A stretch of 64,000 nt of DNA, from NCBI GenBank assembly GCA_964291215.2, contig OZ219790.1, positions 832,001-896,000 on the forward strand, written 5' to 3'. Under the pieces are notes generated by a model, which ran no database searches, was not told where the DNA came from, and saw nothing but the letters and a program-made list of their open reading frames with translations. Position 1 is the stretch's first letter. Every line of letters starts with the position of its first letter. The translations under genes and the position numbers were made by a program. Source of the DNA: Alphaproteobacteria bacterium (lineage in GTDB: Bacteria > Pseudomonadota > Alphaproteobacteria > MPNO01 > UBA830). Shown in pieces: positions 3,001 through 58,029 of this stretch.

Positions 3001-3487
3001 CAACACGGCAATCGACAGCTTCCCGGAACTGGCGGAAGACCAGGATGCGGGGCTGAAACGCCGAATCGAGCTTGCAGCCGAGAACATCGTCGTCGCGCAT
3101 GAAGAGGCCCGAAACCGCGATTGCGAGCGGGTGGGACACCTCAAGATCGGCTTCGACATCCGCAGCCTCGCGGCTCCTGACCCGCAAACCGGATTCCGCG
3201 ACCCGGTTGACGGCGTCAGGCGCATCGAGGTCAAGGGCCGCAGGGCGGGCCACCCGGTCAGGCTCACCACGAACGAGTGGTACAAGGCCCAGCAACTCGG
3301 CGACACCTACTGGCTATACGTAGTGTGGGACCCGCTCGATAACCCGGACGCCGTCCCGTTGATCGTTCGCAACCCAGCCAAGCATCTGGACTACGCGAAA
3401 AGAGAGGTCGTTGCTGCGCGCTATTACGACATTCCGGCGAATGCCGTCGAACAAGCGGCGCAAGATCTCCGGGAGGGCGCCGCATGA
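2..3487 (+). CDS. SNF2-family helicase with C-terminal DUF3883-like (NOV_C, PD-(D/E)xK) nuclease domain; 5' end lies outside the window
   Basis: Walker A LADDPGAGKT, IIDEAH, LTATP, ATEAAGEGINLQ, YDLPWNPTRLEQRLGRIHR; C-terminal GFDIRS...IEVKGR...LTTNEW. Frame is open back to base 2 (VILEDVRP). Confidence 0.9.
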   Translation, partial: VILEDVRPLGANGSAGYECRVRLPDGELEEAVITPDEAVELLGTEAAREKAAPQPADANQLRLLVESVRIRLAYTYDRQFAVSLSGIRTLPHQLEAVYMKMLPQPRLRFLLADDPGAGKTIMAGLLIKELKLREAIERCLILVPAPLTIQWQDELLRFFNEPFQIIHSANDQQQLLNLWERERQVVASIDYAKQDDVRERVWRQRWDLIIIDEAHKCSAYTKRASGREDEVERTKRYQLAERLSEQCDSLLLLTATPHHGDDDRFAHFIRLLDSDLFPEPHRFGEAAGRLRREILKLGDDCPWSLRRLKEDLKDMRGRRLFPDRHVQTVSFALGPEEYTIYRAVTAYINEFLPQATGRRKNSVALARTVFQRRLASSTHAIHESLRRRRKKLDGLLRELEELPPAQRARRLAQLQGRLSDTEQDEDDLDESARDVLIDEATTAAELDQLRAELSELDDLVARVGRVRESGRDSKLVALRECVQRSEFEELKDGRGKLLLFTEHRDTLDYLREHLEAWGYSTCQIHGGMNPRERKQAQEDFRTSRQICVATEAAGEGINLQFCHLMINYDLPWNPTRLEQRLGRIHRIGQTRDVYAFNFVATSSEDGQPVIEGRILERLLGKLDRMREALGDRVFDVVGEVLSLNKVNLPDMLREVAYEPRRLDDYLDVIDRIDPDLLGHYEEATGIALARGHVDFSAFAQANLEVEERRLMPRYVESHFLSAAKVVGLRTEARADGLWRIEHVRADLRSERLAAVRRLGAPDASYRKLTFYKEHLEQDQHLDAVLLGPGHAVYAAVDEKLNELLHDVVGRIAVYVDPMTAVPYRLHFYEITIRGQTTKGDATIIHAELAAVREEAAEGLAGAGRFEVVPADILIDLPEHPHPPETLPATDYGPVSDYIKTTVQMERRSAAWDERSRYADVTRDYLKRSFDARVRAAQNRVMRLKSREPTEPEVALARQQAEQSLADLERTRQERITGVDRLRVARHGPVRHVASCLVLPPNTAIDSFPELAEDQDAGLKRRIELAAENIVVAHEEARNRDCERVGHLKIGFDIRSLAAPDPQTGFRDPVDGVRRIEVKGRRAGHPVRLTTNEWYKAQQLGDTYWLYVVWDPLDNPDAVPLIVRNPAKHLDYAKREVVAARYYDIPANAVEQAAQDLREGAA

Positions 3488-9206: not shown

Positions 9207-9258
9207 CCTTGCCTGCCAGCCGATACCGCCGATCGAACACTTCTGGATTGACCGCACC

Positions 9259-11226
9259 ATGATACTCAAACGAGTACAAATCACCAACTTTCAGAGCATT
9301 CGGGATTCGACGGAGTTCGAGATCGGCGAGGTAACATGCCTTGTCGGGAAAAATGAGGCAGGAAAGACCGCGCTGCTGAAGGCGCTGTATCGACTTAACC
9401 CAATTCGCGCATCTGACGCAGATTTCGATACGACCAGAGACTACCCGCGTCGTGATCTGGTCGACTATGAGGAAGGCCTTGAGAACGGCACCCAAGACGT
9501 TGCGCAGGTCGTCCGGGCAACCTACGCACTTGATGCTGATTGCATCGAAGCAATCGAATCCATGTATGGAGTCCATTGCCTGAAGGACAGGAATGCAATT
9601 GTTGAACTGCGCAAGGACTACTCCAACGAGGTGACGTACTCCGGGCTGCAGATAGACCATGAAGCTGTAGTATCCCATCTCGTGGCCAGCGCTGGTCTGC
9701 CAAAACCCCTGAGTGACACGCCGGGATCCTGCAAGAGCATCCCGGAAATAATCGAAGCCCTTCAAGACACTGAAGAAACAGATGCGTCACAAGAGCTCTG
9801 CCGACGTCTCGACGAAATACCCGGTGGAGATGTGGAGAACGCGATATACCACCAGATAATTTCCCCTAAGCTGCCCAAATTTCTGTATTTCGATGAATAC
9901 TACCAGATGAAGGGACAGGATAACCTCGATGCGCTCCAGGATCGCCGCAATCAAGACAATCTTGAGGAGGCTGATGAACCGCTGCTCGGGCTTATTGAAC
10001 TTGCCGGGCTAGATCTGGATCAACTTACGAATCCCGAACAAACTGAAAAGTTGCTCGGCCGGCTTGAAGCAGCGGAGAACCGGCTTACGAACAAGGCACT
10101 GAAATACTGGTCTCAAAATAGCCACTTGCGCATGAAATTTGATATTCGTCCTGGTCAACCTGGAGATCCTCCCGACATGACGAGCGGGATGAACATCCTG
10201 GGAAGAGTGCAGGACACCAAACACATGGTCAGTACCGCCCTTGGCACAAGGTCTCGCGGCTTCATATGGTTCTTTTCCTTTCTCGCATGGTATTCAAAGC
10301 TCCGCAAGCAGGGCGAAAACCTCATTCTGCTGTTGGATGAACCCGGACTATCTCTCCACGCAAAAGCCCAGGCAGACCTGCTTCGCTACTTCGAGGAGGA
10401 ACTCAGGCCGCATCACCAGCTCATCTATACGACGCATTCACCTTTCATGGTCGATCCGACGCGCTTCGATCGCGTCCGGATTGTTCAGGACTTGAGCGTA
10501 GAAGAGGGGTCGGATGATCTGCCGGACGACAAACAGGGGACAAGGGTAGTTGGCGATGTTCTCGATGCAACTCCGGACAGTCTGTTCCCACTCCAGGGTG
10601 CCCTAGGATACGAGATTCATCAGACATTATTCGTAGGCCCCAATTGCTTGGTTGTTGAAGGTGCTTCGGACCTTCTGTACATCCAGACCATGTCAGCCCT
10701 TCTTGAGAAACGGGGCAGGACCGGTCTCAGTGCTCGATGGACGATCACGCCTGTGGGAGGCGCTGGGAAGGTTCCAACGTTCGTGGCACTGATCGGTGCG
10801 CAGAACGACCTGAATGTGGCGGTACTTGTTGATTTTCATGAACGTGATCGGCAGCAAGTAGAAAATCTGTACAGGAAGAAATTGTTGAAGAGGCAGAATA
10901 TATTAACGTTCACAGATTTCACTCAGGGCGACGAAGCGGATATTGAAGATTTGTTCGGCGTTGAATTCTATTTGCGCCTGGTGAATGCGGAGTTTGGGTG
11001 CGAAATCCGGTCCACTGAATTGGACTCAGATCATCCTCGAGTTATCTGGCGAATCGAGGAGTATCTGAAAGGAAACCCACTTCCGGGGGAAGTTCGCTTC
11101 AGCCACTATCGCCCGGCGCGGTACTTCAGCGAGAATGCCAACGCGCTCGCGGAGCACCTGGGAGATAACGACCTTGGTCGCTTTGAGTCTGTCTTCCAAG
11201 CGGTTAACGGGCTTCTGCCGAATTAA
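9259..11226 (+). CDS. OLD-family ATP-dependent endonuclease (ABC ATPase + TOPRIM)
   Basis: ITNFQSI, GKNEAGKT Walker A, LLLDEPG, TTHSP, TOPRIM VVEGASD, DIEDLF. Start set at ATG 9259 (MILKRVQI). Lower GC than upstream genes. Confidence 0.85.
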   Translation: MILKRVQITNFQSIRDSTEFEIGEVTCLVGKNEAGKTALLKALYRLNPIRASDADFDTTRDYPRRDLVDYEEGLENGTQDVAQVVRATYALDADCIEAIESMYGVHCLKDRNAIVELRKDYSNEVTYSGLQIDHEAVVSHLVASAGLPKPLSDTPGSCKSIPEIIEALQDTEETDASQELCRRLDEIPGGDVENAIYHQIISPKLPKFLYFDEYYQMKGQDNLDALQDRRNQDNLEEADEPLLGLIELAGLDLDQLTNPEQTEKLLGRLEAAENRLTNKALKYWSQNSHLRMKFDIRPGQPGDPPDMTSGMNILGRVQDTKHMVSTALGTRSRGFIWFFSFLAWYSKLRKQGENLILLLDEPGLSLHAKAQADLLRYFEEELRPHHQLIYTTHSPFMVDPTRFDRVRIVQDLSVEEGSDDLPDDKQGTRVVGDVLDATPDSLFPLQGALGYEIHQTLFVGPNCLVVEGASDLLYIQTMSALLEKRGRTGLSARWTITPVGGAGKVPTFVALIGAQNDLNVAVLVDFHERDRQQVENLYRKKLLKRQNILTFTDFTQGDEADIEDLFGVEFYLRLVNAEFGCEIRSTELDSDHPRVIWRIEEYLKGNPLPGEVRFSHYRPARYFSENANALAEHLGDNDLGRFESVFQAVNGLLPN

Positions 11227-11272
11227 CTCCGCGCTTGAACAAACATCCTGAAGGGATTCTTGCGATGGGGAT

Positions 11273-12673
11273 GTGTCCTTGACACGCGAAGAGGTGGCGG
11301 CGTTGGCCTCGATGGGTGAGTCCGAGGTGCTGGAGTTCAAGGCTACCACCGGAACGCGCCGCGAGGCGGCGGCGACCGTATGTGCGATGCTGAACCAGCG
11401 CGGTGGACTTGTGCTGTTCGGGGTCGCGCCGGACAGCCGTGTCGTGGGTCAGCGGATCGGCGAACGGACAATTGAGCAGGTGAGCGCCGAAATCCAGCGG
11501 ATCGAGCCGCCCGCGTTTCCGGAGATCGAGCGCGTTCGTGTACGGGAGGATTTGGAGGTCATTGCGGTTCGGGTGGGCCCCGGGGCGTCGCCACCGTATC
11601 AGTACCGGGGGGCTTCCTATCTGCGTGTCGGCAATACGACGCAGGCCATGTCCGCCGAAGAATACAACCGCTTGCTTTTCGAGCGCATGCACAACGATCG
11701 ACGTTGGGAGAACCAGCCCGCCGACGGGTGGACGGTAGACGACCTGGACGTCGCAGAGATTCGCAATACGGTCGCGGAGGCTGTGCGGACCGGCCGTCTT
11801 GACGAACCTGGCGGCCTGAATTCAGAGGACATGCTGCGCGGGTTGGGGCTGCTGCGCGGCGGCGTCCTGTTCCGGGCCGCCGCGGTGTTGTTCGGAAACG
11901 CGGAGCGCCTCGAAAGCGAAATGCCGCAGTGCCTGCTCCGCGTAGCCCGCTTCCGGGGCGTTGACCGTTCGGAGTTTCTCGACAATCGTCAGTTCATCGG
12001 GAACGCGTTCATCCTGCTTGCGAGCGCCTCACGCTTTCTGCGCGATACGCTCCCCATCGCGAGCCGCTTCGAGCCCGGCCGCATGGCGCGCATCGACGAG
12101 CCGCTCTACCCGCCCCTTGCAACGCGGGAGGCGCTGGCGAACGCCCTGTGCCATCGAGATTATGCCATGGGCGGCGGCTCCATTGGGCTTGCAGTCTACG
12201 ACGACCGACTGGAGATAACCTCGACCGGTCCACTGCACTTCGGACTGACTCCGGAGGACCTCTTCGGACCGCACGAGTCGCGGCCCTGGAACCCGCTCAT
12301 CGCCCGCACGTTCTATCGGCGCGGCATCATCGAGGAATGGGGCCGCGGCACGATCAAAATGGCCGACCTGGCGACATCGGCCGGGCTACCACGCCCGGAG
12401 ATCGAGGAACGGGGCGATTGCGTGACGGTGCGCTTCCGGCGCGCTGACTACGTGCCGCCTAGACACGACGACGGCGAACTGACGGAACAGCAGAGGACAG
12501 TGTTGACGCTTATTCATCGGTCCGGCGGCGCTTTGGCGCTCCGGGATATCCGCGCTGCCCTGGGGTCTCAGGCAAACCAGCGGCGGCTACGGGAAGACCT
12601 CGCCACTCTGAAGGCCAAGGGGTTGGTGGAGTCCACCGGGGTGGGTCGGGGAGCACGCTGGAAAGCCCTGTAG
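11273..12673 (+). CDS. AlbA_2/Schlafen domain + HATPase_c_4 + winged-helix protein (often labelled RecG-like)
   Basis: GESEVLEFK...AMLNQRGGLVLFGV (AlbA_2), REALANALCHRDY, PWNPLIA...IEEWGRGT, C-terminal HTH ending GRGARW. Confidence 0.85.
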   Translation: MSLTREEVAALASMGESEVLEFKATTGTRREAAATVCAMLNQRGGLVLFGVAPDSRVVGQRIGERTIEQVSAEIQRIEPPAFPEIERVRVREDLEVIAVRVGPGASPPYQYRGASYLRVGNTTQAMSAEEYNRLLFERMHNDRRWENQPADGWTVDDLDVAEIRNTVAEAVRTGRLDEPGGLNSEDMLRGLGLLRGGVLFRAAAVLFGNAERLESEMPQCLLRVARFRGVDRSEFLDNRQFIGNAFILLASASRFLRDTLPIASRFEPGRMARIDEPLYPPLATREALANALCHRDYAMGGGSIGLAVYDDRLEITSTGPLHFGLTPEDLFGPHESRPWNPLIARTFYRRGIIEEWGRGTIKMADLATSAGLPRPEIEERGDCVTVRFRRADYVPPRHDDGELTEQQRTVLTLIHRSGGALALRDIRAALGSQANQRRLREDLATLKAKGLVESTGVGRGARWKAL

Positions 12674-41715: not shown

Positions 41716-42365
41716 GGGCGTGAGTCTGGCATGGCGATGGCGGGACCGGTCGGCTGACCGGGCTCATGCGGCGCGCTTGGGGGCGTAACCGGGGCAGTTG
41801 TTGTCGTTGACCGGGGTATCGGCATCGCTCATGAGGCCTGCCCATGCGCGGTCGAAGCGTCCGGATTTGATGAGGGCGCGTATGGTGAGGACGGCCGCCC
41901 GCCGTGGATGCGCCATCGCATGCCGGAGCGCTTCATCCTCTGTGCGACGAGGGTTTTGTTCGCGGCCTCGACAACGCCGGAGCCGATGGTGATGCCCCGG
42001 TCGCTGAGGTTGCGGTATCGCATGCGCTTGCGGTGCTTGCGGAAGAAGGCGAGTTCGCGCTCGACGGCGTTGCGCGCGGATCACCTTGGCGACGCCGCAC
42101 GGGTCATGACGCAGGATATGGCGGTAAGTCTCGAACCAGCGGGGATCGACGGCATGGTGTGGTGCGGTGCGATTGCTTCAGAACGACATCCTGCCCGCCT
42201 TCGGCGGGCGGAGCGGTCCCGCTTCCGGCCCTGCCACCGAGCGGCCGTGACAAAATCCCGACCCCGAAACCCCGATTGTCACCGATCGACCCCAAAGGCC
42301 ATCCGAAACGAACATAAAATTTCAATAAATCAAATGGTTGCAATCGCCATACGGGACCTGCACCC
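41716..42365 (-). mobile_element. Internally deleted ISKra4/ISLre2-like IS remnant
   Basis: MRY...IGSGVVEAANKTLVAQRMKRSGMRW transposase C-terminus with a frameshift; boundaries approximate from imperfect GGGYGY terminal repeats. Confidence 0.65.
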
Positions 42366-42445
42366 GTGCAGACCTGAAAAGCCGCTCATATCCGCAGACT
42401 ACAAGGGACTCGGCAAGGTCACGCCATCCTCAAATGCCGGATTTA

Positions 42446-42495
42446 GGGTCAATCTTCGACGCCGATCCGGGGTCAACTTTGAACGCCGATTGACA
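42446..42495 (-). mobile_element. Solo IS21-family-like terminal end
   Basis: Minus strand TGTCAATCGGCGTTCAAAGTTGACCCC-GG-ATCGGCGTCGAAGATTGACCC: TG terminus plus two tandem binding repeats; no istAB nearby. Confidence 0.7.
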
Positions 42496-42505
42496 GTCTA
42501 CGGCT

Positions 42506-43768
42506 TTATCTAATTTTTTTCGGCAATTCCGCTGTATTATTGCCGCTTGCTCTTTGATACCTTTCGAGTAATGTCGCTTCCGGGTAGTTTTTTGTGTTCT
42601 TCCCGACCATGTACCACAGCACTTCACGTATCGTCACCTTATGGCCATTAAGCATGATCTTCTTGGTCGGCTCCCACATTAGCCACCGAAACGGCTCTTC
42701 GTTTAGGTTATTGGGTAGCTCGGCCACTAGTTTGACGGCCCGATCAAGACTAATGTCTTTCGTTAATCGCGCGATCACGCGAGTCATGATCTCCAGTCCG
42801 ATAGGACGATAGAGAACATGACCTCCGTGGCTACCGCGATACCTCTTGACCACGGGTTCGGTGTTCTCCGCGCTAAAAAACTCATCAAGAGCTTCAAAAT
42901 TCTTCTTAAGTTGAAGAAAGTATGCTTCAGCGAACTCAAAATATTTATCCAAAATTATATCATCCGGACGCACACGCTGCAAATTTGGCCTCTGATTCTT
43001 CAGATCGGATTGAGCGTTAGTGAACAATATCGTCAGGATATCGTAGAGATTGGCAATCGTGGTCAGGCTGGTCGTGTTCGCGGTTGGCATATTGTTGCTG
43101 GCAACGAAAGCGACCTTGTTACCAGTGAAAAGTTCGGTTTGTTCAATGAGTCGCCTTACGCAAATGGCCATGACATCGTCCTCATCAAGGGCGATGATTT
43201 CCCCTTTAGAAACGGGGCGTGCAGTCTTGTTCAAGGTCGTAAACAACCGACGTGTGCGCTCCAACCCTTCTTCGGTATCTTTATGTCCAACGAATATGAC
43301 AGAAAATTCATCATAGAGGCCGTTGTGCAGACCGTCTTTTATAGCCTTCTTGATGCCAGCCAGACGATGCTGACCGTCGAGCGCAAAAAGCTTCTCTCGC
43401 CCCGTGAGCGTCAGAAATCCGACGGAGGAAACCGTATCCTCGGTGAGGTTCTTCAACTCTCTACGGGCAGTCTTGCTCCGAACATCCGAAAGGGCGTACC
43501 AACTAGGTTGGCCACCGTATGTAGCGACCACAAGGGAATTAAAGAAGTGCTCGGGTTGTCTCTTGAGATAATCCGCGATCTGTGTAGCCCGGCCTTTCTT
43601 TAGGTGCCGTTGTATCATGTCCGAAAGCGCTTCGTTCTCGTGGATTTGCTCCGCGTAATTGACGCGCGAACTCAGCTCACCAATGTCCATAAGGCATGAA
43701 TAAAAAACCCAATCGCCCATGACACCACGGAGAGCCGGCAGTACGATTTCTTTTTGCTTTCTTGTCAT
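42506..43768 (-). CDS. DGQHR-domain (DndB-like, ParB-fold) protein
   Basis: PALRGVMGDWVFY, IQR, FFNSLVV, ALDGQHRL, LFTTLNKTARPVS; TGATG coupling; low GC. Confidence 0.85.
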   Translation of the reverse strand: MTRKQKEIVLPALRGVMGDWVFYSCLMDIGELSSRVNYAEQIHENEALSDMIQRHLKKGRATQIADYLKRQPEHFFNSLVVATYGGQPSWYALSDVRSKTARRELKNLTEDTVSSVGFLTLTGREKLFALDGQHRLAGIKKAIKDGLHNGLYDEFSVIFVGHKDTEEGLERTRRLFTTLNKTARPVSKGEIIALDEDDVMAICVRRLIEQTELFTGNKVAFVASNNMPTANTTSLTTIANLYDILTILFTNAQSDLKNQRPNLQRVRPDDIILDKYFEFAEAYFLQLKKNFEALDEFFSAENTEPVVKRYRGSHGGHVLYRPIGLEIMTRVIARLTKDISLDRAVKLVAELPNNLNEEPFRWLMWEPTKKIMLNGHKVTIREVLWYMVGKNTKNYPEATLLERYQRASGNNTAELPKKIR

Positions 43769-44310
43769 CACCGGAACGCCTTCCGTTTTTGCTTTATATC
43801 GGCGTCGATGTCTCCTTCGGAGAATGGCGGCAGCAACGCCGTGTTGAGCTGCTTTTCGAGCGCCTGTAAATCATCTGAGGAAACATCATCATCGATGGGA
43901 GCAAAGTAGAACCGTAATACTTGGTGCCAAGTTCCGATCATTCGTGCGATGCGAGCACGCTTTAGGACCTTCTTGGCGTTAAGATAATCCTTATACCGTT
44001 CCCTAAGCGGGCGTTTGGAATCGCGTCCTGCAATTCCGATGTAAAGAACGTACCCATGAGGCGGAAATACATCATTAGTGCTCGAGATCGCGAAGGCGTA
44101 AATGCCTCGCTTATCAGCAGGAACCCTTCCCAACTCTTCTTCGCCGTAGCTGATAGAATCCCACGCAAGGGCTTCAATGGCGAACTCATTCGCCATCATT
44201 TTATCAGGCGACAAGGTAACGGGAACCGTATACTTGTTGATTTCCTCGGCTGCCTCGTTTGCAAAATCTGTCAAGGATTCCAGATCCACCGTCCGTGCCC
44301 TCGCCTTCAT
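43768..44310 (-). CDS. GIY-YIG-like endonuclease
   Basis: GIYAFAI...VLYIGIA...LRERYKDY...LEKQL..ALLPPF; TAATG coupling to the PAPS reductase gene. Confidence 0.72.
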   Translation of the reverse strand: MKARARTVDLESLTDFANEAAEEINKYTVPVTLSPDKMMANEFAIEALAWDSISYGEEELGRVPADKRGIYAFAISSTNDVFPPHGYVLYIGIAGRDSKRPLRERYKDYLNAKKVLKRARIARMIGTWHQVLRFYFAPIDDDVSSDDLQALEKQLNTALLPPFSEGDIDADIKQKRKAFR

Positions 44311-45149
44311 TATTTGTGACATGCCAGACAGGCTTTGGCCCTGCCATACAGATCATCGATGTCCAGAGGTTCCCGGTCGGGCCGAAGTGGATTGATTCCG
44401 CCGCGTGAACGCATCCGCGCTAGCCTCAGTTCGTGATCGCGTCTGATTTGCGCGATGCGCTCCGATCGTTCCAGCTCTTCGAGAGACTCTCCCTGGCTCC
44501 ACGTGAACGGCGAGCCGTGCTCGACGGCGTTCTTTTCGTAGGCTTTGGCTTCTTCGAAGGCCGCGGGGTGTTGTTCCCTGAGCCGCACCCACTCGATTTT
44601 TTGCTGGAAGAAGCAGAAGGTGCAGCCGCTGCGTGTGCGCCAAGCGTAATACGCTGGCAGACCGAGCCCCGCGCCATCAAGGATATCCAGCACACCCGCC
44701 TTGTCGACACCGGCCTGTTTGAAAGGCAGCCTGATGACGAGGCGGTCGTGCTTCGAAGTGTAGCCTTCGCGATATTCCTCGTCGCTGCGGATCGCGACAT
44801 AGCTGTAGACGATAGTGCCAGCCGCGAGGATCGGTCGGAGCCATTGCTCGAACGGCCGGAGCTTGAGTTGCCGTGTGCACCAGCGCGTCTGGGGTGACGG
44901 AAGAAAGTCGTTGTACTGCTTGAGCCAGAAGTCGAAGTCGCGGTCGGGGTTCAACCGCCGTATCGGCTGTCCGAGAAATCCTTCGAGTTTCCCCAGATAC
45001 TCGTAGACCTCGGGCAATTCCTTGCCCGTGTCCGTAAAGAAGTAATCAATCTGCAACTCGGGATGATGCTGTCTCATATGGACGGCGAGCGCCGCGCTGT
45101 CACGCCCACCGGACAGGCCGAGGACATGTTTCACGGAATCGGACGTCAT
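44310..45149 (-). CDS. PAPS-reductase-family protein (SspD/DndC-like)
   Basis: PP-loop SGGRDS, DTGKE, RWCTRQLK, RSGCTFCF, C-terminal CLACH. Confidence 0.88.
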   Translation of the reverse strand: MTSDSVKHVLGLSGGRDSAALAVHMRQHHPELQIDYFFTDTGKELPEVYEYLGKLEGFLGQPIRRLNPDRDFDFWLKQYNDFLPSPQTRWCTRQLKLRPFEQWLRPILAAGTIVYSYVAIRSDEEYREGYTSKHDRLVIRLPFKQAGVDKAGVLDILDGAGLGLPAYYAWRTRSGCTFCFFQQKIEWVRLREQHPAAFEEAKAYEKNAVEHGSPFTWSQGESLEELERSERIAQIRRDHELRLARMRSRGGINPLRPDREPLDIDDLYGRAKACLACHK

Positions 45150-48100
45150 GAAGCGACTCTCCCATTACGTTTCTCTTCCACGGGCGCAGGCTGCTGCATG
45201 TAGCGCGTGCTGAGTTCTGCCAGCGCCGCCAGAATGATGCTGCGGTGACTGTTATCGGCTTTCTCAAGGGCGGCAGCCACGCGCTCGACAAGTTCGTTGA
45301 CGGCGGCGCGGTCGGTGTCGGCAATTTCGAACTCCTCCAGCAGGGGCGCCGGGCGGCCGTCCATGCCGATGACGACGGCAAGGGCCTGCCGTTTGTCGGG
45401 ACGTCCCTTGACGCGCGCATATGTCTCCGTGCGCAGGAACTTCTGCGCCATGTCGGCAAGCTCGATTGCCGCCCGGTCCAGGTCGGGATCGACCCAATCG
45501 CGCGGAGGCTTGTTGGCGGCCAGGCTGGCAATTCCTTCGAAACTGTCGTGAGAGCCATCGAACTGCATGAGCCGACCGACGAAGGCGTCGAGACGGAAGT
45601 CTCCGGCAAGCTGCCTGATGTTCTCTGCGCGCTCCCGCAATTCCGCGAGGGCCTGCGGGGAGCAGTTCGGCACCTGCAACTCTGCGAGCATGAGGTCGCG
45701 CAGGCGATACAGCATGGAGGGATAGGCCTGTACCAGCTCTTCGAGCCCTGCGCGGACGCTGCCGATGACACCGCGCAGGGCGTCCTCATCGCCAAGCGAA
45801 ACGTCTTCGCCCAGCGTTCCGGGGATGTCATCGAACAGGAACTGGTTGGGGTCGTGTGCCCGTTTGAAGAGCTCGCGGATGCTCACGGCATTCGAGGACA
45901 GCCGCATTGTCCGTTCGGTCCACCTCGGAAGCCGGTCGTAGATCGCAACGAGGCCGCGGCCGACATCGATCGGCTTCAGATATGTGAGTTCATTCGTTTC
46001 GTCGAGATCACGCACTATCTGCGCCATACCCGAAAGCAGACCCCGGGCAAGGCCGGTGAGGTCCATCCAGCGCAATTGGACAAAGGCTGCGTCCTTCGCG
46101 AGATAGTCCACGTCCACATCGTCGAATATCGCCCGGAACACGCCGTTCCGATAGACCGCGAGCCTGTCGCGCTGCGACAGGATGAAGGCGACGGCGAGGA
46201 TCGGCATGAGGCCATCCTTGACGCCGAAAGGCGGTTGCCTCCACTCATCGAACAGCTCGGAGATGGCGACCGCGCGATTCGCGTTCTGCTCCACGAACTG
46301 GCTTGCCCATTCCCAAATGGGGCCCAGACGGCATGGATCGTCGTGGCCTGTCGTCGGCGAAACGAATCGCCAGGCATTTTCACTTCGGGCATAGAGGCCC
46401 GTCGCTTCAAGCAGGGACGCAAACAGGCCGCGCTCGGCGGGGAACCCGTCAATGCCGAGACGAGGCGCGCCCTGGTTCAGAACCATGCGTCGAAGGAGAT
46501 TGTTCTGCGCCGCGATGGCGTTGCTGGACGGCTTCCTTCGGTTGAGAAGCTCGTTGTGCAGGCGCGGCGACTTGTCGAAACGGCGATCTGCCAGCTCGGA
46601 GGCAATGCCGTTCAGGTCCGCCTGCCGGAAGCGCTTCGCCCGGTGGCCCTTGCGAAACCACAGGGCGCTGTCGAACGCCTTGTGCAACTCTGTTTCCAGG
46701 ACGGCCTGCAGGGCTGCAAGCCGTGCGGAGACTTCTCGCCGGGCAACGGTATCGCCAGCCAGTTCCGGATGAGCGTCGGCGACGCGGTCGAGAGCCAGCA
46801 GTTCACGCGCGAGCGGCATGATGGTCCAGGATCGCTGGGAAATTCCGACGACCGTGTCCCATTCATCACTGCAACGCGCCGCCTTGCGGCACAGCGCTTC
46901 GGCGTTTCTCCTGCTTTCTCCCCCGGTCGGGATGGTGAGGAGGAACTGACCGATCGCGCCGTTTCTCGGTCCGGGGCCGGTTGTGAATTCAGCGAGTCCG
47001 CCGACGGGAACAATGTTCACGTCGAACCACCGGAGCGCGCCTGTATCGTGATAATGGCGTTTGGCGAGAATTGGCTGAAGTCCCGCCAGGGATTCGAGTC
47101 CCCGGAAATCGACCTCGCCGGTCTCGTCGAGCGCAGCGCGGACGGCCCGGTCGATGTCGAAATCGCTGCCGGCAAATATCGCGCGGGCGTCGAGGAACTT
47201 CTTGAAGATCGTGAATGACCACGTGTCCAGCTGCGTGAGCGTTTTCTCAAGCTCGCTGTCGGAGACCTCGGGGAAGCAGGTTCGCAGAAGCCCGGAATTC
47301 GGAACGAGGCCCGAGTTCTCCTTGAACAGATCGATGACCGCGATCGTCTTGAGCAGGCGCACATGAAGGGCATCCCCGCCGATTGCTTCACATCGCTCCA
47401 GTGCTTCCGCCGCCAGCGCCCATCGGTGCCCGTCGGGAGAGGCAAGGATGGATGGCTCAAGGTTGACGCGCAGGTAGTCCCAAAGCCGCTCCGGGCCGTA
47501 AAGGTGCCTGCCGGAGGCCCTGTTGAGGAAGTCCTGGAATCCGTGTGGCTCGGCGGAGTTGAGGAAGCCGAATATGCTACGCTGGTTCTGCCCGAAACGG
47601 CGCCGCGAAATCGGTCCCAGCAGACACGAGACGACCGGATGCAGTGGCCAGCATGCTTCGAGCACGGCGGCCAGCCTTTCCGCGTCGCGAGGATGCCCCG
47701 GCAGCGAAAGCCCTGCGACGGCGGATGCGAGTGCGCCCGGCTTCGTCGGGCGGTGATCGCTGTCGATGGCGCGGGAGATGAGGTCGATCTGTTCCTCGCC
47801 CGCGGTGTTGACGACGAGATCGACGAAACGGCCCTGTATCTTGGCCCATTCATCGCGCATTTCGTGCGACAGGCGGCGGGCATACTCCTCGAATGCCTGA
47901 TGCAGCACACCGACCATCAGCAAGCGCCCATTGCTCCGGGACGCCGCTTCGGCAAGTTGCTGGAGGATGTAGATGTCGGAGCCGTCCTGGGCCGCGGCTT
48001 CGAGAAACTTGCCCATCTCGTCGATGAAGAGGACGAGCCCGCCATGCGTTGCGGGCTTTTCTGCCGCCGCGCCGGTCAGCGTGGCGATCAGGTTGGCTTC

Positions 48101-48541
48101 GGTCCAGCCGCCCCGCGGTTGGCGAGATACAAGTCCGGCTCGCTTTACAGCTTCGCCGATGACCGCAACGGGGTTGTCGCGCCGGGCAACCACGGGAAGG
48201 ACACGCCAGCCCTTCGAGCCGGCCGGCAATGCCTCCCGGACCGTCCTCGTGACCTTCCGGCCGAAGACCCTGGCAGCTTTTGCGCGCAATCGGGCATTGC
48301 CGTTCAGCAAGGCGCTGAACGCGACGATCAGGCTCGACTTGCCGCTGCCGTAAGGGCCGGTCCAAGTATATGCGCCCTGTCCGGTTTCGGAAACATGCCG
48401 GGCCATCGTCAAGAGAATGTCGGCGAAGGATTGCGGACAGATGAAGCCTTCAAGGCTCGCGGCATCGCCGAAGTCGGAGTCGATGCGGACCGATCGGAGG
48501 AAACGGCGGGCAATGCGGACACGATCGCCGAAAGGCATCAC
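45146..48541 (-). CDS. Large P-loop ATPase (SspC/BrxC-like)
   Basis: FLRSVRIDSD, TGPYGSGKS, LFIDEMGKFLE, EWAKIQGRF, WPLHP, QNQRSIFGFL, PPFGVKDG. Confidence 0.82.
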   Translation of the reverse strand: MMPFGDRVRIARRFLRSVRIDSDFGDAASLEGFICPQSFADILLTMARHVSETGQGAYTWTGPYGSGKSSLIVAFSALLNGNARLRAKAARVFGRKVTRTVREALPAGSKGWRVLPVVARRDNPVAVIGEAVKRAGLVSRQPRGGWTEANLIATLTGAAAEKPATHGGLVLFIDEMGKFLEAAAQDGSDIYILQQLAEAASRSNGRLLMVGVLHQAFEEYARRLSHEMRDEWAKIQGRFVDLVVNTAGEEQIDLISRAIDSDHRPTKPGALASAVAGLSLPGHPRDAERLAAVLEACWPLHPVVSCLLGPISRRRFGQNQRSIFGFLNSAEPHGFQDFLNRASGRHLYGPERLWDYLRVNLEPSILASPDGHRWALAAEALERCEAIGGDALHVRLLKTIAVIDLFKENSGLVPNSGLLRTCFPEVSDSELEKTLTQLDTWSFTIFKKFLDARAIFAGSDFDIDRAVRAALDETGEVDFRGLESLAGLQPILAKRHYHDTGALRWFDVNIVPVGGLAEFTTGPGPRNGAIGQFLLTIPTGGESRRNAEALCRKAARCSDEWDTVVGISQRSWTIMPLARELLALDRVADAHPELAGDTVARREVSARLAALQAVLETELHKAFDSALWFRKGHRAKRFRQADLNGIASELADRRFDKSPRLHNELLNRRKPSSNAIAAQNNLLRRMVLNQGAPRLGIDGFPAERGLFASLLEATGLYARSENAWRFVSPTTGHDDPCRLGPIWEWASQFVEQNANRAVAISELFDEWRQPPFGVKDGLMPILAVAFILSQRDRLAVYRNGVFRAIFDDVDVDYLAKDAAFVQLRWMDLTGLARGLLSGMAQIVRDLDETNELTYLKPIDVGRGLVAIYDRLPRWTERTMRLSSNAVSIRELFKRAHDPNQFLFDDIPGTLGEDVSLGDEDALRGVIGSVRAGLEELVQAYPSMLYRLRDLMLAELQVPNCSPQALAELRERAENIRQLAGDFRLDAFVGRLMQFDGSHDSFEGIASLAANKPPRDWVDPDLDRAAIELADMAQKFLRTETYARVKGRPDKRQALAVVIGMDGRPAPLLEEFEIADTDRAAVNELVERVAAALEKADNSHRSIILAALAELSTRYMQQPAPVEEKRNGRVAS

Positions 48542-49494
48542 GCGGCCTCCTTCCCGGCAAGCGCCCCGTAGTCGTCTGGAATCCGGGACAGGATTGACCC
48601 GTCGTCGAGGTCGATGTTGCGTTCAACCTGCCTGAGGCCGGCGGTTTCGGACCACTGCAAGGCGCCGTCCGTTGCCCCGCCGAGGGCGGACAGGCGGTCG
48701 GCGACATCGTTCTCGTCGAAAAGGAATACGCGCCCGGGGCCACCGGGGGCATGTGCAATGGCTTCGAATGACAGGGTAGATGCAGTGGAATACTGTCGCC
48801 AGAAATCCAGGAGCGCATATATGAAGATACCGTTACCCAAGGTTGTCTTCGCCCCGCGCACGAAACGGAATCCGTCTTTCTGGCCAACAGCCTTGATAAG
48901 GCCCAATTCGGTCAGCGGCGATTCAAGTGCGTCGTCGTGGCCCGCATTGCCTGAAGGTTGACGCGCGACATAGGTGCGAATGAAGCAGGCGACATCGTTC
49001 CTGATCGTCTTGCTGGCGGCGCGGGACCACTGGCGGTCCGTTGCAAGACGATCGAGTCTCCTGATCAGTGACTCTCGCTCGAAGGTGACGGCGGGGTAGT
49101 GGTTAAATGCCCAGAACCATGTCGTCTTGTCTGCATGAGCTGCGAACTGCCAATGGATGAGCCACAGCGTTGCAGGATGCTCCATGTACGGGTCAAGACC
49201 TTCGGAGCCGAACAACAGGCGACCGAGTGTCGTCGTGCGAACCGAATTGGCCGCAGGCTCCTCGACCACGCCGGCTGCCTTCGCCCAATGGCGTATGGAC
49301 GCGACCATGTTCCTGCCGACGCCGAAGCGCGCTATGGCCTCTTCTCCCCAACAGGCAGCCCGGTTCTCGGGCCGATGCTCGGTCCCTGCGACTCGGTCGA
49401 ACGCCTTCTTGAGCCATCCGTAACGGAGCGGGAAGGTCTCATGGCCTGAAAACTGCGGGTTGTAGGTGTTCTGATAGAGCGGTCCACGCACCAT
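48538..49494 (-). CDS. DUF4007-family protein (SspB-like)
   Basis: FSGHETFPLRYGWLKK, FGVGRNMVASIRHW, DPYME...LWLIHW, SPLTELGLI, ETAGLRQ; GAGGA RBS before ATG 49494. Confidence 0.88.
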   Translation of the reverse strand: MVRGPLYQNTYNPQFSGHETFPLRYGWLKKAFDRVAGTEHRPENRAACWGEEAIARFGVGRNMVASIRHWAKAAGVVEEPAANSVRTTTLGRLLFGSEGLDPYMEHPATLWLIHWQFAAHADKTTWFWAFNHYPAVTFERESLIRRLDRLATDRQWSRAASKTIRNDVACFIRTYVARQPSGNAGHDDALESPLTELGLIKAVGQKDGFRFVRGAKTTLGNGIFIYALLDFWRQYSTASTLSFEAIAHAPGGPGRVFLFDENDVADRLSALGGATDGALQWSETAGLRQVERNIDLDDGSILSRIPDDYGALAGKEAA

Positions 49495-49652
49495 TCGTTC
49501 CTCGGCTACTGGACCCTGCATCCAGTGGTTCGACTCTAGCGCACGGCCTGTGCTACGGTCAACGGAAACTGGAGACCTCCGCCAGACGGAGACACAGGGC
49601 CGAATCTCGACCCTGCGGTACCCACCAAATCACGCCAACATATTGTTATATA

Positions 49653-50861
49653 ATGAAAATTGGACAAACGATCTATCTGGACCATCAGGCCACGACGCCT
49701 TTGGATCCGCGCGTCTTGGCCGAAATGGCTCCCTGCCACGGCGAATCGTTCGGGAATCCGCACTCCTCGGATCACAGCTTCGGCTGGCAGGCCGCGCGTG
49801 CGATTGAAGAAGCCGCTGCGCGATTCGCACGGTTCATCGGAGCGGACCCCGACGAAGTCTTTTTCACCTCCGGCGCAACCGAATCCAACAACATGGCGTT
49901 GCTCGGGCTCGGACGCAGGGCCGCCCGGGGAGACCGCCGCCGTATCCTGGTCAGTGCCATCGAGCACAAGTGCGTGCTCGCATCGGTTCGAGCGCTTGAA
50001 GAACAGTACGGGTACGCCGTCGAGCGGATCCCGGTGGACCGACAGGGCCTCGTCGATCTCGAGGCGTTTGACGACATGCTCGGCGAAGACATCCTCGTTG
50101 TGTCGGTCATGGCCGTGAACAACGAAATCGGATCGATTCAGGATATCGAGACCATATCCGATCGTGTTCGTCCGCATGGGATCGTGTTTCATTGCGATGC
50201 GGCACAAGCGCCTCTCGGCATGCCGAGAGGCGCGCTTGCAATGCATGCGGACCTGCTGAGTTTCTCCGGTCACAAGATGTACGGTCCGAAAGGGGTCGGA
50301 ATCATCTTCATCGCGCGCGCGCTGCAAGACCGGATCGAACCGCTGATTTACGGCGGTGGTCAGCAGGACGGGCTTCGCTCGGGAACGCTCCCGGTGCCGC
50401 TCTGCGTGGGCATGGGCGCGGCCAGTCATTTGCTGAACAGCGAAGAAGCGCGAAAGAAACTCGAGGAACTGTCCCTCCGCCGCGACGCTTTCGTGCGTCT
50501 CCTGACAGGTCTGGACCGGTCCGTTCGATCAATCGGCCCCGAAGGCGAGTCACGGCATCCGGGCAATGCAAGCATCTGTTTCCACGGGTTCTCGGCGCAC
50601 GAGATACTCGGGGCGCTTCAACCCCGTCTTGCCGCTTCAACAGGCTCTGCGTGCACATCGGGTATTCCGGAGCCGTCTCATGTGCTGAGGGCGGTCGGCC
50701 TCAACAGTGACGATGCTGAAGCGACCATACGTTTCAGCCTGGGCTTCGGAACGACCGATGAAGACATCGGGCAAGCCGTGGCGCTGATTGAAGAGGTCTT
50801 GGCGAAAATGCTCAAAGCCGGATCGCGGAATGTCAGGCCCAACTTCAACAGTGACGATTAA
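49653..50861 (+). CDS. Cysteine desulfurase (IscS/DndA/SspA-like)
   Basis: YLDHQATTP, FTSGATESNN, SGHKMYGPKG (PLP Lys), RSGT, STGSACTS (catalytic Cys), IRFSLG; divergent from the DUF4007 operon. Confidence 0.93.
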   Translation: MKIGQTIYLDHQATTPLDPRVLAEMAPCHGESFGNPHSSDHSFGWQAARAIEEAAARFARFIGADPDEVFFTSGATESNNMALLGLGRRAARGDRRRILVSAIEHKCVLASVRALEEQYGYAVERIPVDRQGLVDLEAFDDMLGEDILVVSVMAVNNEIGSIQDIETISDRVRPHGIVFHCDAAQAPLGMPRGALAMHADLLSFSGHKMYGPKGVGIIFIARALQDRIEPLIYGGGQQDGLRSGTLPVPLCVGMGAASHLLNSEEARKKLEELSLRRDAFVRLLTGLDRSVRSIGPEGESRHPGNASICFHGFSAHEILGALQPRLAASTGSACTSGIPEPSHVLRAVGLNSDDAEATIRFSLGFGTTDEDIGQAVALIEEVLAKMLKAGSRNVRPNFNSDD

Positions 50862-55495: not shown

Positions 55496-56668
55496 CTACA
55501 GGATGTCGGCGGCGATGCTGTTCGCGATTCGCGCGGCCGCCTCGTGCACCGACTCGCGCGCGAGATGCGCATAGCGCGCCGTGGTCTCGACCTGGCTGTG
55601 GCCGAGCAGCTTGCCGATCATCGGCAGGGACTCCCCGAGCGCCAGGGCCCTGGACGCGTAGCTGTGGCGGAGGTCGTGAAGCCGCACGCCCTTGAGCCCG
55701 GCGCGCTCCCGGAGGGTCTGCCAGGCGCCGTCGATGTCGGTCATGTGCGTGCCCGGCCTGTGCCCCGGAATGACCCAGGGATTGCCGGGCCTGCGGGGCA
55801 GCGCCGCCAGCAGCCGCACCGCCGAGGGCGGCAGCGGCACCGCGCGCGGGCCGGTCTTCGCGTCGGCCAACGCCAGCTCGCCCGCGTCCAGGTCCACGTC
55901 GTCCCACCTCAGCGTCAGGATCTCGTTCTTGCGGCACCCGGTCAGCATCAGCAGCCGGATCGCCGTCACCGCGCCCGCCGACGCGCCGCCCTGCGTCTCC
56001 GCCCCGTCCAGCACCCGGCCCAGCTTCTCGAACTCCGCCCCGGTCAGAAACCGCTCGCGGCGTTTCGACGGGTACCTCGTCAACGACCCGCACGGGTTGA
56101 CCCCGTCCGCCACCATGCCCCAGCCCTCGGCCAGACGGTACATGTGCGAGAGCGTTGCCACCGCCATGTTCGCCATCGCGGGCCGGTCGCCGAGACCGTG
56201 ATGCAGCTCCAGGACATCGCGGGGCTCGACCGCCGCCAGCGCCAGACCGCCGAGCCCGGGCACGATGTGCCGCTCGACCACGCTGCGCGTCGTCCTCGCG
56301 GTCTTGGGCTTGCAGCGCACCGCCACATGCTCCTCGAGGTAGCGCGCCGCGAGGTCGGCCACGGTCGGCCCCTGCGCCAGCTTCGCCGCCAGCGGCTCCG
56401 GCACCGGGTCCTCGCCCGCCTTCACCCGCGCGATGACCAGCGCCGCCCGGCGCCTGGCCTCCTCCGCGTTGAGCACCCCGTGACGGCCCACCGTGACACG
56501 CCTCGGCCCCCCGGGTCCCCGCGCCTGCGCGACATAGACCCTGCCGCCGCCGGGATAGGCCCGCACCCCGAAGCCCTTCAGCTCACGGTCCCAGAACACC
56601 GTGTCCCGCTCCACTTCCAGCGCCGCCACCATGCGGTTGGAGATCGTCCGCCTGCGCGTTCCCCTCAT
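55496..56668 (-). CDS. Tyrosine recombinase/integrase with N-terminal arm-binding (DUF4102-like) domain
   Basis: FWDRELKGFGVR; catalytic LTGCRKNEI, AKTG, HDLRH, LLGH, TARYAH; ATGA overlap with the upstream integrase. Confidence 0.93.
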   Translation of the reverse strand: MRGTRRRTISNRMVAALEVERDTVFWDRELKGFGVRAYPGGGRVYVAQARGPGGPRRVTVGRHGVLNAEEARRRAALVIARVKAGEDPVPEPLAAKLAQGPTVADLAARYLEEHVAVRCKPKTARTTRSVVERHIVPGLGGLALAAVEPRDVLELHHGLGDRPAMANMAVATLSHMYRLAEGWGMVADGVNPCGSLTRYPSKRRERFLTGAEFEKLGRVLDGAETQGGASAGAVTAIRLLMLTGCRKNEILTLRWDDVDLDAGELALADAKTGPRAVPLPPSAVRLLAALPRRPGNPWVIPGHRPGTHMTDIDGAWQTLRERAGLKGVRLHDLRHSYASRALALGESLPMIGKLLGHSQVETTARYAHLARESVHEAAARIANSIAADIL

Positions 56669-57846
56669 GCCGCGCTCCGCTCCGGCGCCACGTGAACGCC
56701 GATGCTCTCGCCCACCCGGCCCGCCGCCGCCCTCTCCGCGTCGCGCACCAGATGCGCATAGCGCGCCGTCGTCGCCACCCGGGAATGACCCAGCAGCCGC
56801 CCGATCATGCTCAGGCTCTCCCCCAGCGCCAGCGCCCGGCTTGCATACGAATGGCGGGCGTCGTGAAGGCGCACATCCCTGAGGCCGGCTCTCGCGGTGA
56901 TGCGCCGCCAGTAGTAGTCCAGGTTGACCAGATGAGTATCCCGCTTGCGGCCCGGCACGATCCACGGACTGCCGTCCGACCGGTCGATGCCGTCGAGCAC
57001 CTTCACCAGCGGCGGGGTCAGCGGCACCATGCGCGGCCCCGACTTCGCGTCCCTCAACCGCAGTTCGTTCGCCACCCGGTCCACGTCGTCCCACCGCAGC
57101 GTCAGGATCTCGCTCTTGCGGCAGCCGCTCAGGATCAGCAGCCGGATCGCCGCCACCGCCTGCGGCCACGGCGCCGATTTCGACGCCGCCTCGCGCAGCG
57201 CCTCGCCCAGACGGCGGTATTCTTCCGGCGTCAGGAAGCGCTCGCGCGTGTGTTCCCGGTAGTAGCGCAGCGACCGGCACGGGTTGGAGCCGCGCGGCGC
57301 CAACTCCCAGCTCTCCGCCAGCTTGTACATCTTCGACAGGACCGCCGCGGCGGTGTTGGCCATGTAGGGGGTGCCACGCAGCCGGTGGTGCAGCCCGGCC
57401 GCGGCCTCCCGCCCCACATCCCCGAGCGCCCTGCCGCCGAGCGCCGGCAGGATGTGCAGGTCCAGCACCGTCCGGTAGAGCGCCGCCGTCTTCGGCTTGC
57501 AGTGCATCGCCACATGCTTCTCCATGTAGCGCGCCGCCAGCCCGGCCACGGTGAGCGCCGGCGCCGCAGGCGCCGGACAGGGCTCCTCGCCCCGCTTGAT
57601 CCGGTCGATCGCCGCCGCCGCGCGCGTTCTTGCCTCCTCGACGGTGATCTCGCCATGTCTGCCGAGCCGGGCGCGCTTCAGCCCGCCCGGCCCCCGGGAC
57701 TGGACCACGTAGACCTTGCGCCCGGTGGCATGGATGCGGACGCCGAAGCCCGCGAGGTCGCGGTCCCAGAAGGTGGCGTCGTCGCGATCGACGCTGAGCG
57801 CATCGACGGTGCGCTTGGTGATCCTGAGAGTGCTTCGCTTGGGCAT
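56665..57846 (-). CDS. Tyrosine recombinase/integrase, paralogue of the adjacent one
   Basis: FWDRDLAGFGVR; LSGCRKSEI, AKSG, HDARH, LLGH, TARYAH. Confidence 0.93.
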   Translation of the reverse strand: MPKRSTLRITKRTVDALSVDRDDATFWDRDLAGFGVRIHATGRKVYVVQSRGPGGLKRARLGRHGEITVEEARTRAAAAIDRIKRGEEPCPAPAAPALTVAGLAARYMEKHVAMHCKPKTAALYRTVLDLHILPALGGRALGDVGREAAAGLHHRLRGTPYMANTAAAVLSKMYKLAESWELAPRGSNPCRSLRYYREHTRERFLTPEEYRRLGEALREAASKSAPWPQAVAAIRLLILSGCRKSEILTLRWDDVDRVANELRLRDAKSGPRMVPLTPPLVKVLDGIDRSDGSPWIVPGRKRDTHLVNLDYYWRRITARAGLRDVRLHDARHSYASRALALGESLSMIGRLLGHSRVATTARYAHLVRDAERAAAGRVGESIGVHVAPERSAA

Positions 57847-58029
57847 GGCGTCATTCCCGTGATCAAACCGCACATGAGCGGCATCGAACCGGGGCGCATT
57901 CAAACGCATCCATGGCGCAGATGCAAGAGGCGAAAGCGACCGGGTATTTCAGGTAATCATAGGGAATACAAGGCATTATCATCTTCGGAGGTAGCCAGGC
58001 GCATGAGTGACATGGTCGAAAAAATGTAA

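Follow-up and report, generated by a model that had tools for sequence, protein, structure and literature searches.

The SspABCD proteins constitute a phosphorothioate (PT) writer, whose mark by definition is a single-strand PT at 5′-CpsCA-3′ in host DNA. In SspABCD-SspE (PMC9646914, PMC13251355) the effector SspE is one chain that combines a DUF262 ParB-like GTPase with a DUF1524 HNH nickase, and DndI of the IscS-DndBCDE-DndI system (PMC11662687), which belongs with Dnd, likewise unites DUF262 and HNH in one chain. Both proteins couple a PT-stimulated ParB-like NTPase to a nickase, and they stack with the larger modules SspFGH (PMC8092258) or DndFGH (PMC11662687). Among the 2,678 sspBCD loci of Wang et al. 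(2021; PMC8092258), sspE is located beside 199, sspFGH beside 196 and both beside 36; most Ssp writers are therefore without a known partner. Here we describe an ssp locus in a 64,000 nucleotide stretch of an alphaproteobacterial genome (contig OZ219790.1, positions 832,001 to 896,000; the whole stretch is called the window), in which sspBCD is followed by genes for a predicted GIY-YIG nuclease and a DGQHR (DndB-like) protein. We tentatively read this pair, with a probability of about 45%, as a split auxiliary effector of the SspE/DndI type that was added to SspABCD.

With SspABCD-SspE the locus has in common the writer and, at the 3′ end of sspD, a predicted ParB-fold DGQxR protein together with a nuclease. 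With DndI the pair would share the role of a ParB-like NTPase plus nickase that forms an extra layer beside a larger module. It differs from both in being divided over two proteins, one of them DGQHR/DndB-like and the other GIY-YIG, and in its range, since it is found mostly with Ssp but also with Dnd-type writers. SspABCD-SspFGH (PMC8092258) shares the writer and the slot 3′ of sspD. DndB, the DGQHR repressor of dndBCDE (PMC4507180), resembles the second protein of the pair in its Pfam DndB and TIGR03187 matches and in the DGQHR motif. GIY-YIG “backup” nucleases beside Dnd are already in print: URI/GIY-YIG genes at the boundary of PT loci were proposed to be backup effectors (PMC10853773). 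The available text of that paper contains neither a fixed GIY-YIG and DndB-like pair nor a link to Ssp, and its supplement may list such neighbourhoods. In the full-text literature, subscription papers being outside the search, no description was found of the pair, of the lone MORC gene or of the operator presented below.

An ssp core followed by a GIY-YIG and DGQHR gene pair

A preliminary description, made from the sequence of the window, had proposed an SspABCD core with a divergent cysteine desulfurase, and this assignment holds. The best PADLOC matches are SspA, SspB, SspC and SspD, well above the Dnd or BREX models, so that the core is an SspABCD module by gene content; single-strand PT marking of host DNA is predicted for it. 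The six open reading frames (ORFs) of core and pair are intact at the positions given in Table 1 and contain no internal stops. For sspB, ATG 49494 is a likelier start than 49521, as many relatives align from residue 10. The genes sspB and sspC are joined by GTGATG, sspC and sspD by ATGA.

BREX type 4 (PMC12839542; PMC12914056) shares homologues of SspB, SspC and SspD and the cysteine desulfurase with the locus, but the Ssp models outscore the Brx models and a BrxP fusion is not present. SspE, DndD/E, PglZ and BrxL, of which the preliminary description had recognised no motif either, matched none of the eight locus proteins scanned with PADLOC. Likewise, tblastn searches of the whole genome (99.3% complete) showed no match for SspE, SspF, SspG, PbeC, DndC, DndD or DndI. 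By gene content the locus does not belong to SspABCD-SspE, SspABCD-SspFGH, Dnd or BREX type 4. An SspH match on another contig is due to the FtsK domain only, and the single GmrSD_N match is located about 520 kb away in another cluster.

Table 1. Features of the ssp locus; positions refer to the window.
Feature	Position	Strand	Remarks
MORC/GHKL-like ATPase, ~810 aa	39285..41714	+	convergent on the operon; weak HATPase_c_3 match (E=0.0022), below cut-off
Multi-copy insertion sequence fragments	41716..42451		lie between DGQHR and MORC; own genome gives dozens of blastn matches
DGQHR (DndB-like) protein, 420 aa	42506..43771	-	predicted ParB/Srx-fold N-domain and helical C-half
GIY-YIG nuclease (predicted), 173 aa	43768..44289	-	alternative starts 44310 and 44322
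sspD, short PAPS-reductase-family sulfur transferase	44310..45149	-	PADLOC SspD E=4e-133; stop codon is the cassette-swap breakpoint
sspC, large P-loop ATPase	45146..48541	-	PADLOC SspC 1317 bits
sspB (DUF4007)	48538..49494 (ORF scan start 49521)	-	PADLOC SspB E=5e-107; DUF4007 E=2e-86
Downstream operator-like palindrome CTGGA-N7-TCCAG	49509..49525		before the sspB ribosome-binding site
Sigma70-like sspB promoter, TTGACC-18-TAGAGT	49533..49562	-	between both palindromes
Upstream operator-like palindrome CTGG-N9-CCAG	49569..49585		CCA in each arm
sspA, cysteine desulfurase	49653..50861	+	divergent from the operon; PADLOC SspA E=4e-125; Pfam Aminotran_5

The smaller ORF of the pair has no match in Pfam, PADLOC or NCBIfam at E≤0.1. 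Its AlphaFold model (mean predicted local distance difference test score, pLDDT, 90) is closest to T4 EndoII (2wsh; Z 8.7, root mean square deviation (rmsd) 2.9, 105 residues aligned) and to the GIY-YIG domain of UvrC (1ycz; Z 8.5, rmsd 2.0, 86 aligned), followed by I-TevI (1ln0; Z 7.2) and Eco29kI (3mx4; Z 6.2). Judged by this model, the 173-aa protein has a GIY-YIG fold. Residues Y64, Y83, G85, R98, Y102 and E145 are kept at 99-100% in 113 aligned sequences, and we take these positions to be the catalytic Tyr, Tyr, Gly, Arg, Tyr/His and Glu of known GIY-YIG enzymes. The family comprises 525 close clusters, with 515 representatives at 50% clustering. A length of 173-174 aa, found in most relatives, matches a start at GTG 44289, about 20 nucleotides past the sspD stop. 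This makes the proposed TAATG coupling of sspD and the GIY-YIG gene doubtful: the letters are there, but they are probably not the real start, whereas the GTGATG overlap between the GIY-YIG and DGQHR genes is real.

For the 420-aa ORF, matches were obtained to Pfam DndB (E=3e-29) and, above the cut-off, to TIGR03187 DGQHR, and the protein contains the motif LDGQHRL; both identities given in the preliminary description are thus borne out. D131, G132, H134 and R135 are invariant in 84 DGQHR sequences. The six structures that best match its N-terminal domain are of the ParB/Srx fold, with Z-scores of 4.9-6.4 (best KorB, Z 6.4, rmsd 3.7, 100 aligned); SspE follows with Z 4.7 and BrxU with Z 4.2. 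The model therefore points to a ParB/Srx fold that carries the DGQxR arginine as R135. No clear structural match was obtained for the helical C-half, which was searched within the full-length model, and a nuclease domain was not recognised in the protein. Foldseek searches with the GIY-YIG or the DGQHR model gave nothing at E≤0.001, and PDB sequence searches with the GIY-YIG, DGQHR and MORC profiles gave nothing significant.

The DGQHR protein of the pair is unlike DndB in several respects. It reaches 54 bits against TIGR03233 DndB, for which the cut-off is 328, and its gene follows a GIY-YIG gene rather than heading an operon. In a tree, 18 GIY-paired DGQHR proteins separate from three canonical DndB proteins (100/100, long branches). 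Three dnd loci (L140, L146 and L151) contain both the pair and a canonical dndB.

Linkage to PT writers and exchange at the sspD stop codon

The two genes behave as a unit. A DGQHR gene accompanies the GIY-YIG gene in 55/55 GTDB loci found with the GIY-YIG profile (at least eight phyla), and GIY-YIG stop and DGQHR start overlap or abut in 50 of them. The same five of 72,556 plasmid records match both queries, and all three viral loci found with DGQHR have the GIY-YIG gene directly upstream. In two viral contigs (L136:9456-14749 and L137:9390-12163) the pair adjoins an SspD-like reductase of the 3′-phosphoadenosine-5′-phosphosulfate (PAPS) reductase family. Both genes are under purifying selection, with nonsynonymous rates (dN) of 0.08-0.10 against synonymous rates (dS) of 0.66-1.4 in three close relatives. 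Distances correlate better between GIY-YIG and DGQHR (0.66) than between pair and core (0.40-0.53); this comparison, like that of GC content below, is based on 39 loci, among them that of the window, in which each of the five genes reaches at least 75% length.

A PT-type writer gene lies within 10 kb of the pair in 50/55 loci. SspD and SspC are encoded in 39 of the 55, with sspD directly upstream of the pair in 37 of these; in eight loci a divergent PAPS reductase, presumably with a PT role, is accompanied by PDC-M33-like genes, and three loci have a DndC-type gene with a cysteine desulfurase. The remaining five have no writer within this distance, and two of these genomes encode DndC elsewhere. 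The figures are counts, not tests, because kin are not independent. Besides Ssp, the pair adjoins dndBCDE, DndC-only and PDC-M33-linked PAPS reductases.

Two sets of loci deserve a description of their own. The pair, together with PDC-M33A/B-like genes and a PAPS reductase of the divergent kind, is found in L025, L038, L039, L042, L034, L035, L049 and L052, three of which also encode a cysteine desulfurase; these loci possibly represent an uncharacterised PT writer. A cysteine desulfurase with a short DndC and a GmrSD-like gene, with no DndD nearby, is present in L030 (11879-20211), L050, L053 and L169, and the first three of these also contain SNF2, ParB and metallo-beta-lactamase genes.

It is extremely improbable that the pair is an independent defence unit which merely accumulates in defence islands, although the five loci without a nearby writer and the location of the window locus in an IS-rich (insertion sequence) conjugative element with other defence genes would agree with this. 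In random draws the broad GIY-YIG profile found, apart from own matches, 3/400 genomes (draw by phylum) and 2/400 (by class), and in 5/5 cases a GIY-YIG gene was followed by a DGQHR gene beside ssp or dnd genes, even though SspB is present in only 12/400 random-draw genomes (~3%). The position directly after sspD in 37/39 Ssp loci likewise speaks against chance accumulation.

Exchange of the pair takes place precisely at the stop codon of sspD: cores that are 98% (L079/L013) and 91% (L071/L067) identical diverge at this very point. In the window, which is a mosaic as well, similarity of the core to the pair-less locus L056 (84%) extends up to 44312, and the pair matches that of L005 (90%), a locus without ssp nearby. 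On an SspC tree with 89 rows (SspC of at least 900 aa; pair-less loci with at least 700 bp after sspD), presence of the pair changes at least 19 times (FastTree, without a shuffle control).

As had been noted from the letters, the pair is more AT-rich than the core, with a GC content of 0.505 (GIY-YIG) and 0.484 (DGQHR) compared with 0.59-0.635 in sspBCD and a genome value of 0.64. We considered low GC as a general sign of recent insertion and ruled it out: pair GC is below that of its own core in 39/39 loci compared, and low GC alone can therefore not date an insertion. The gap at third codon positions (GC3) in the window, 0.74 against 0.555, is above the median of 0.06.

Second modules at the Ssp loci and the role of the pair

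Altogether, 38 of the 39 Ssp loci with the pair contain a second module. These are Pbe-like genes in 15 loci, a helicase-MORC-PLD (phospholipase D) triad in 12, SspFGH in five, a lone MORC gene in five and, in one, SNF2 with a second GIY-YIG-DGQHR pair; L044 is the one locus without another recognised module. Where pair and SspFGH occur together, the pair is located between sspD and SspFGH, which shows them to be separate modules. SspE did not match in any pair-containing locus. Modules were called with our own bit-score thresholds, partial genes at contig ends included (L012, L022 and L048), and comparison loci without the pair had at least 2.5 kb downstream and no other DGQHR subfamily.

The survey of genes following this PAPS reductase clade, suggested in the preliminary description, places the pair among several alternative modules. 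In the best 80 of 502 metagenome SspD loci, 73 have at least 600 bp downstream; here sspD is followed by PbeA/C-like genes in 23, the triad in 11, SspFGH in nine, the pair in eight, a two-gene GHKL unit in eight, SspE in five and a lone MORC gene in one. Five more loci have other GIY-YIG/DGQHR subfamilies, and a second module accompanies SspE in 3/5 SspE loci.

Several of these modules are unnamed in this setting. The triad of an SF2 helicase, a MORC-like ATPase and a PLD nuclease beside sspBCD (e.g., L003:10060-14480, L139:11477-15901) has no matching named system. The commonest companion of this Ssp clade is the PbeA/PbeC-like module with a CxC ABC ATPase (L002:11781-16990, L056:12348-17421); the PbeA/PbeC module has been described with Dnd. 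The two-gene unit found after sspD in 8/73 loci, on the minus strand of L056 (7970-12240), encodes a protein of about 630 aa and one of about 790 aa with two GHKL-type domains. Proteins of 680-765 aa with a weakly DndB-like N-terminus, encoded 3′ of sspD in L112 (12427-14721), L117 (3783-5825) and L129 (3096-5393), are another DndB-like companion class.

In the window the second module is likely the MORC-like ATPase gene, which the preliminary description had overlooked. It is separated from the operon by about 790 bp of insertion sequence scraps, and a nuclease domain was not recognised in the protein. Its orthologues, 55-71% identical, follow DGQHR directly in 5/39 Ssp loci with the pair, and one follows sspD alone in the pair-less locus L086; in 3/3 plasmid matches examined (of six) the orthologue lies beside sspBCD.

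The preliminary description had gone further and placed the pair as sole effector in the position of SspE or SspFGH, i.e., as a new subtype. Part of this agrees with the data: SspE is absent from all pair loci, the genome of the window encodes no SspE, SspF or SspG, L044 shows no other module, and the MORC-like protein of the window, besides its lack of a recognised nuclease domain, is set apart from the operon. As an account of the pair it is nevertheless very unlikely, given a second module in nearly all loci, SspFGH itself in five, and a MORC-like gene in the window whose orthologues stand beside sspBCD with or without the pair. What stands of the proposed split effector on an Ssp core are its two parts and their insertion 3′ of sspD; it is not specific for Ssp, and a role as sole effector is not supported.

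We favour the split auxiliary effector because the same two functions, here predicted and on two chains, occupy the same slot and show the same stacking as in SspE and DndI; the absence of SspE from pair loci fits a pair that fills a similar role. SspABCD would put single-strand PT marks on host DNA, and the ParB-fold DGQHR protein would likely act as a DNA-bound NTPase switch that allows its GIY-YIG partner to nick the DNA of invaders. The pair would then be an add-on second defence layer and not the sole restriction partner, the other partner here likely being the MORC-like ATPase. All steps of this scheme are predictions: that PT is formed, that the DGQHR protein is an active NTPase and senses PT, that it is physically coupled to the GIY-YIG protein, that DNA is nicked and that the host is protected against phages.

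Several observations weigh against a split effector of this kind. The ParB-fold Z-scores are middling (4-6.4). The Tyr with which SspE (Y30/Y63) and DndI (Y25) read PT is apparently Ile (xIQR) in 17/18 DGQHR proteins of pairs, provided that the xIQR position corresponds to it, which we presume but which hhalign does not support; one of the 18 has YQR. The preliminary description had called the N-terminus of SspE DGQHR-like, and this is correct insofar as both are ParB-related; however, the SspE motif is DGQQR in a DUF262 domain and SspE does not belong to the DGQHR family (PMC9646914), and hhalign gives a probability of 2% for the DGQHR protein against an SspE, the likeness being limited to the motif. 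In the GIY-YIG protein, the usual C-terminal Asn of the active site is Ser in the clade of the window; family-wide this position is Asn in 46% and Ser in 29% of the 113 sequences, with a nearby Asp in 83%. A GIY-YIG fusion was not found among 7993 scored candidates when the GIY-YIG profile was run against proteins of 341-2000 aa, which is a weak test. One viral locus has no PT writer nearby, and 3/55 genomes (metagenome-assembled genomes, MAGs, of which completeness is not given) showed neither SspD nor DndC anywhere. Finally, DndI/GmrSD-like ParB-HNH genes accompany the pair in four Dnd-type loci (L030, L050, L053 and L146), where a second sensor of this type looks redundant.

Some of these points would fit a pair that ignores PT and fires in response to phage inhibition of the main PT system, as a guard or abortive infection backup; firing would mean nicking of host DNA or depletion of nucleotides, and the DGQHR protein might restrain the nuclease in the manner of an antitoxin. 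The apparent lack of the PT-sensing Tyr, the almost regular presence of a second module and the association with writers of several types whose target motifs differ are in line with this. It has also been proposed that standalone URI/GIY-YIG nucleases bordering Dnd loci serve as backups and that DndB acts as a guard (PMC10853773). A PT-independent trigger by itself leaves the adjacency to PT writers, in 50/55 loci and in all five random-draw matches, unexplained, and we consider such a guard unlikely.

A putative sspB operator, the surroundings of the locus and implications

The intergenic region upstream of sspB contains a second feature missed in the preliminary description, a double palindrome that frames the predicted promoter. 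CTGG-N9-CCAG is found in 81/83 sspB upstream segments of the clade, compared to 16/4150 shuffles. Two copies are present in 58 segments, in 35 of these 57-58 bp apart, and in 54/58 two-box loci TTGAC follows box 1. Gaps of 5-8 between CTGG and CCAG were never seen in the 83 segments. The motif occurs in 6/12 other SspB loci (random draw) and is absent from two distant plasmid loci. LexA boxes of the E. coli type have the spacing CTGx-N8-xCAG, and LexA as binder of the palindrome was ruled out on spacing (N8 in 0/83, N9 in 81/83 segments). Each arm contains CCA, the target motif reported for Ssp (PMC8092258). We regard the double palindrome as a candidate autoregulatory operator, to which SspB may bind in a PT-sensitive manner.

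The operator also bears on the proposal that the pair has a housekeeping function in the writer, in which the DGQHR protein keeps PT levels down in the manner of DndB, by repression or by acting as an NTP sink, and/or the GIY-YIG protein assists in the installation or repair of PT sites. Such a role would suit the position of the pair, usually at the tail of the ssp operon (37/39), the UvrC-like fold, which fits repair, and the closest named family, DndB, a repressor of dnd transcription (PMC4507180). The operator is, however, present with the pair (37/39) as well as without it (32/32), which argues against DGQHR as a DndB-like repressor of this operon. Among 1424 gapped palindromes tested none is specific for the pair (best p 0.06), and the Salmonella DndB box TACG-N10-CGTA was found in 0/71 upstream segments. 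The pair DGQHR proteins are moreover separate from canonical DndB and coexist with it, and near-identical cores do without the pair, which is thus not needed for modification. Altogether, a housekeeping function is quite unlikely.

The surroundings of the locus are IS-rich and adjoin F-type conjugation genes and integrases. Genes for F-type conjugation, including a TrwC relaxase, as well as for an S24 repressor and for integrases are located at 12817-36848 and 55496-57909 of the window; it is likely that an integrative conjugative element carries the Ssp locus as cargo. At the opposite end of the conjugative region (17-12673) are genes for an SNF2 helicase with NOV_C, a DUF1156 methylase and a DUF499 protein (BREX-related type), followed by an ABC ATPase and a Schlafen/AlbA gene. 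One contig (run X2) joins 42452 to 50838 and omits the six-gene block, one side being only 23 nucleotides long; adjacent copies of these two flanks were not found in the own genome.

The combined picture, in which the pair is a writer-agnostic split PT sensor-nuclease for Ssp, Dnd and uncharacterised PAPS reductase systems, MORC an unnamed Ssp partner, and the ssp operon self-controlled via a double CCA operator whose binding perhaps depends on its own PT marks, appears doubtful as a whole to us. If true, it would narrow the gap that exists because most sspBCD loci have no known effector or regulator. The 3′ end of sspD is a cassette slot for unnamed modules, i.e., the pair, the helicase-MORC-PLD triad, the lone MORC gene and PbeA/C-like genes, and the conserved operator offers a handle on PT-level regulation in Ssp, which has no dndB. 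The pair is small (~1.8 kb) and present in cultured non-pathogens; cultured carriers include Ectothiorhodospira haloalkaliphila (L001) and Roseobacter litoralis pROLI83 (L139). It could show whether a nuclease can be placed in trans under the control of a ParB-type switch, and whether the role of DndB-like proteins extends from repression to that of effectors.

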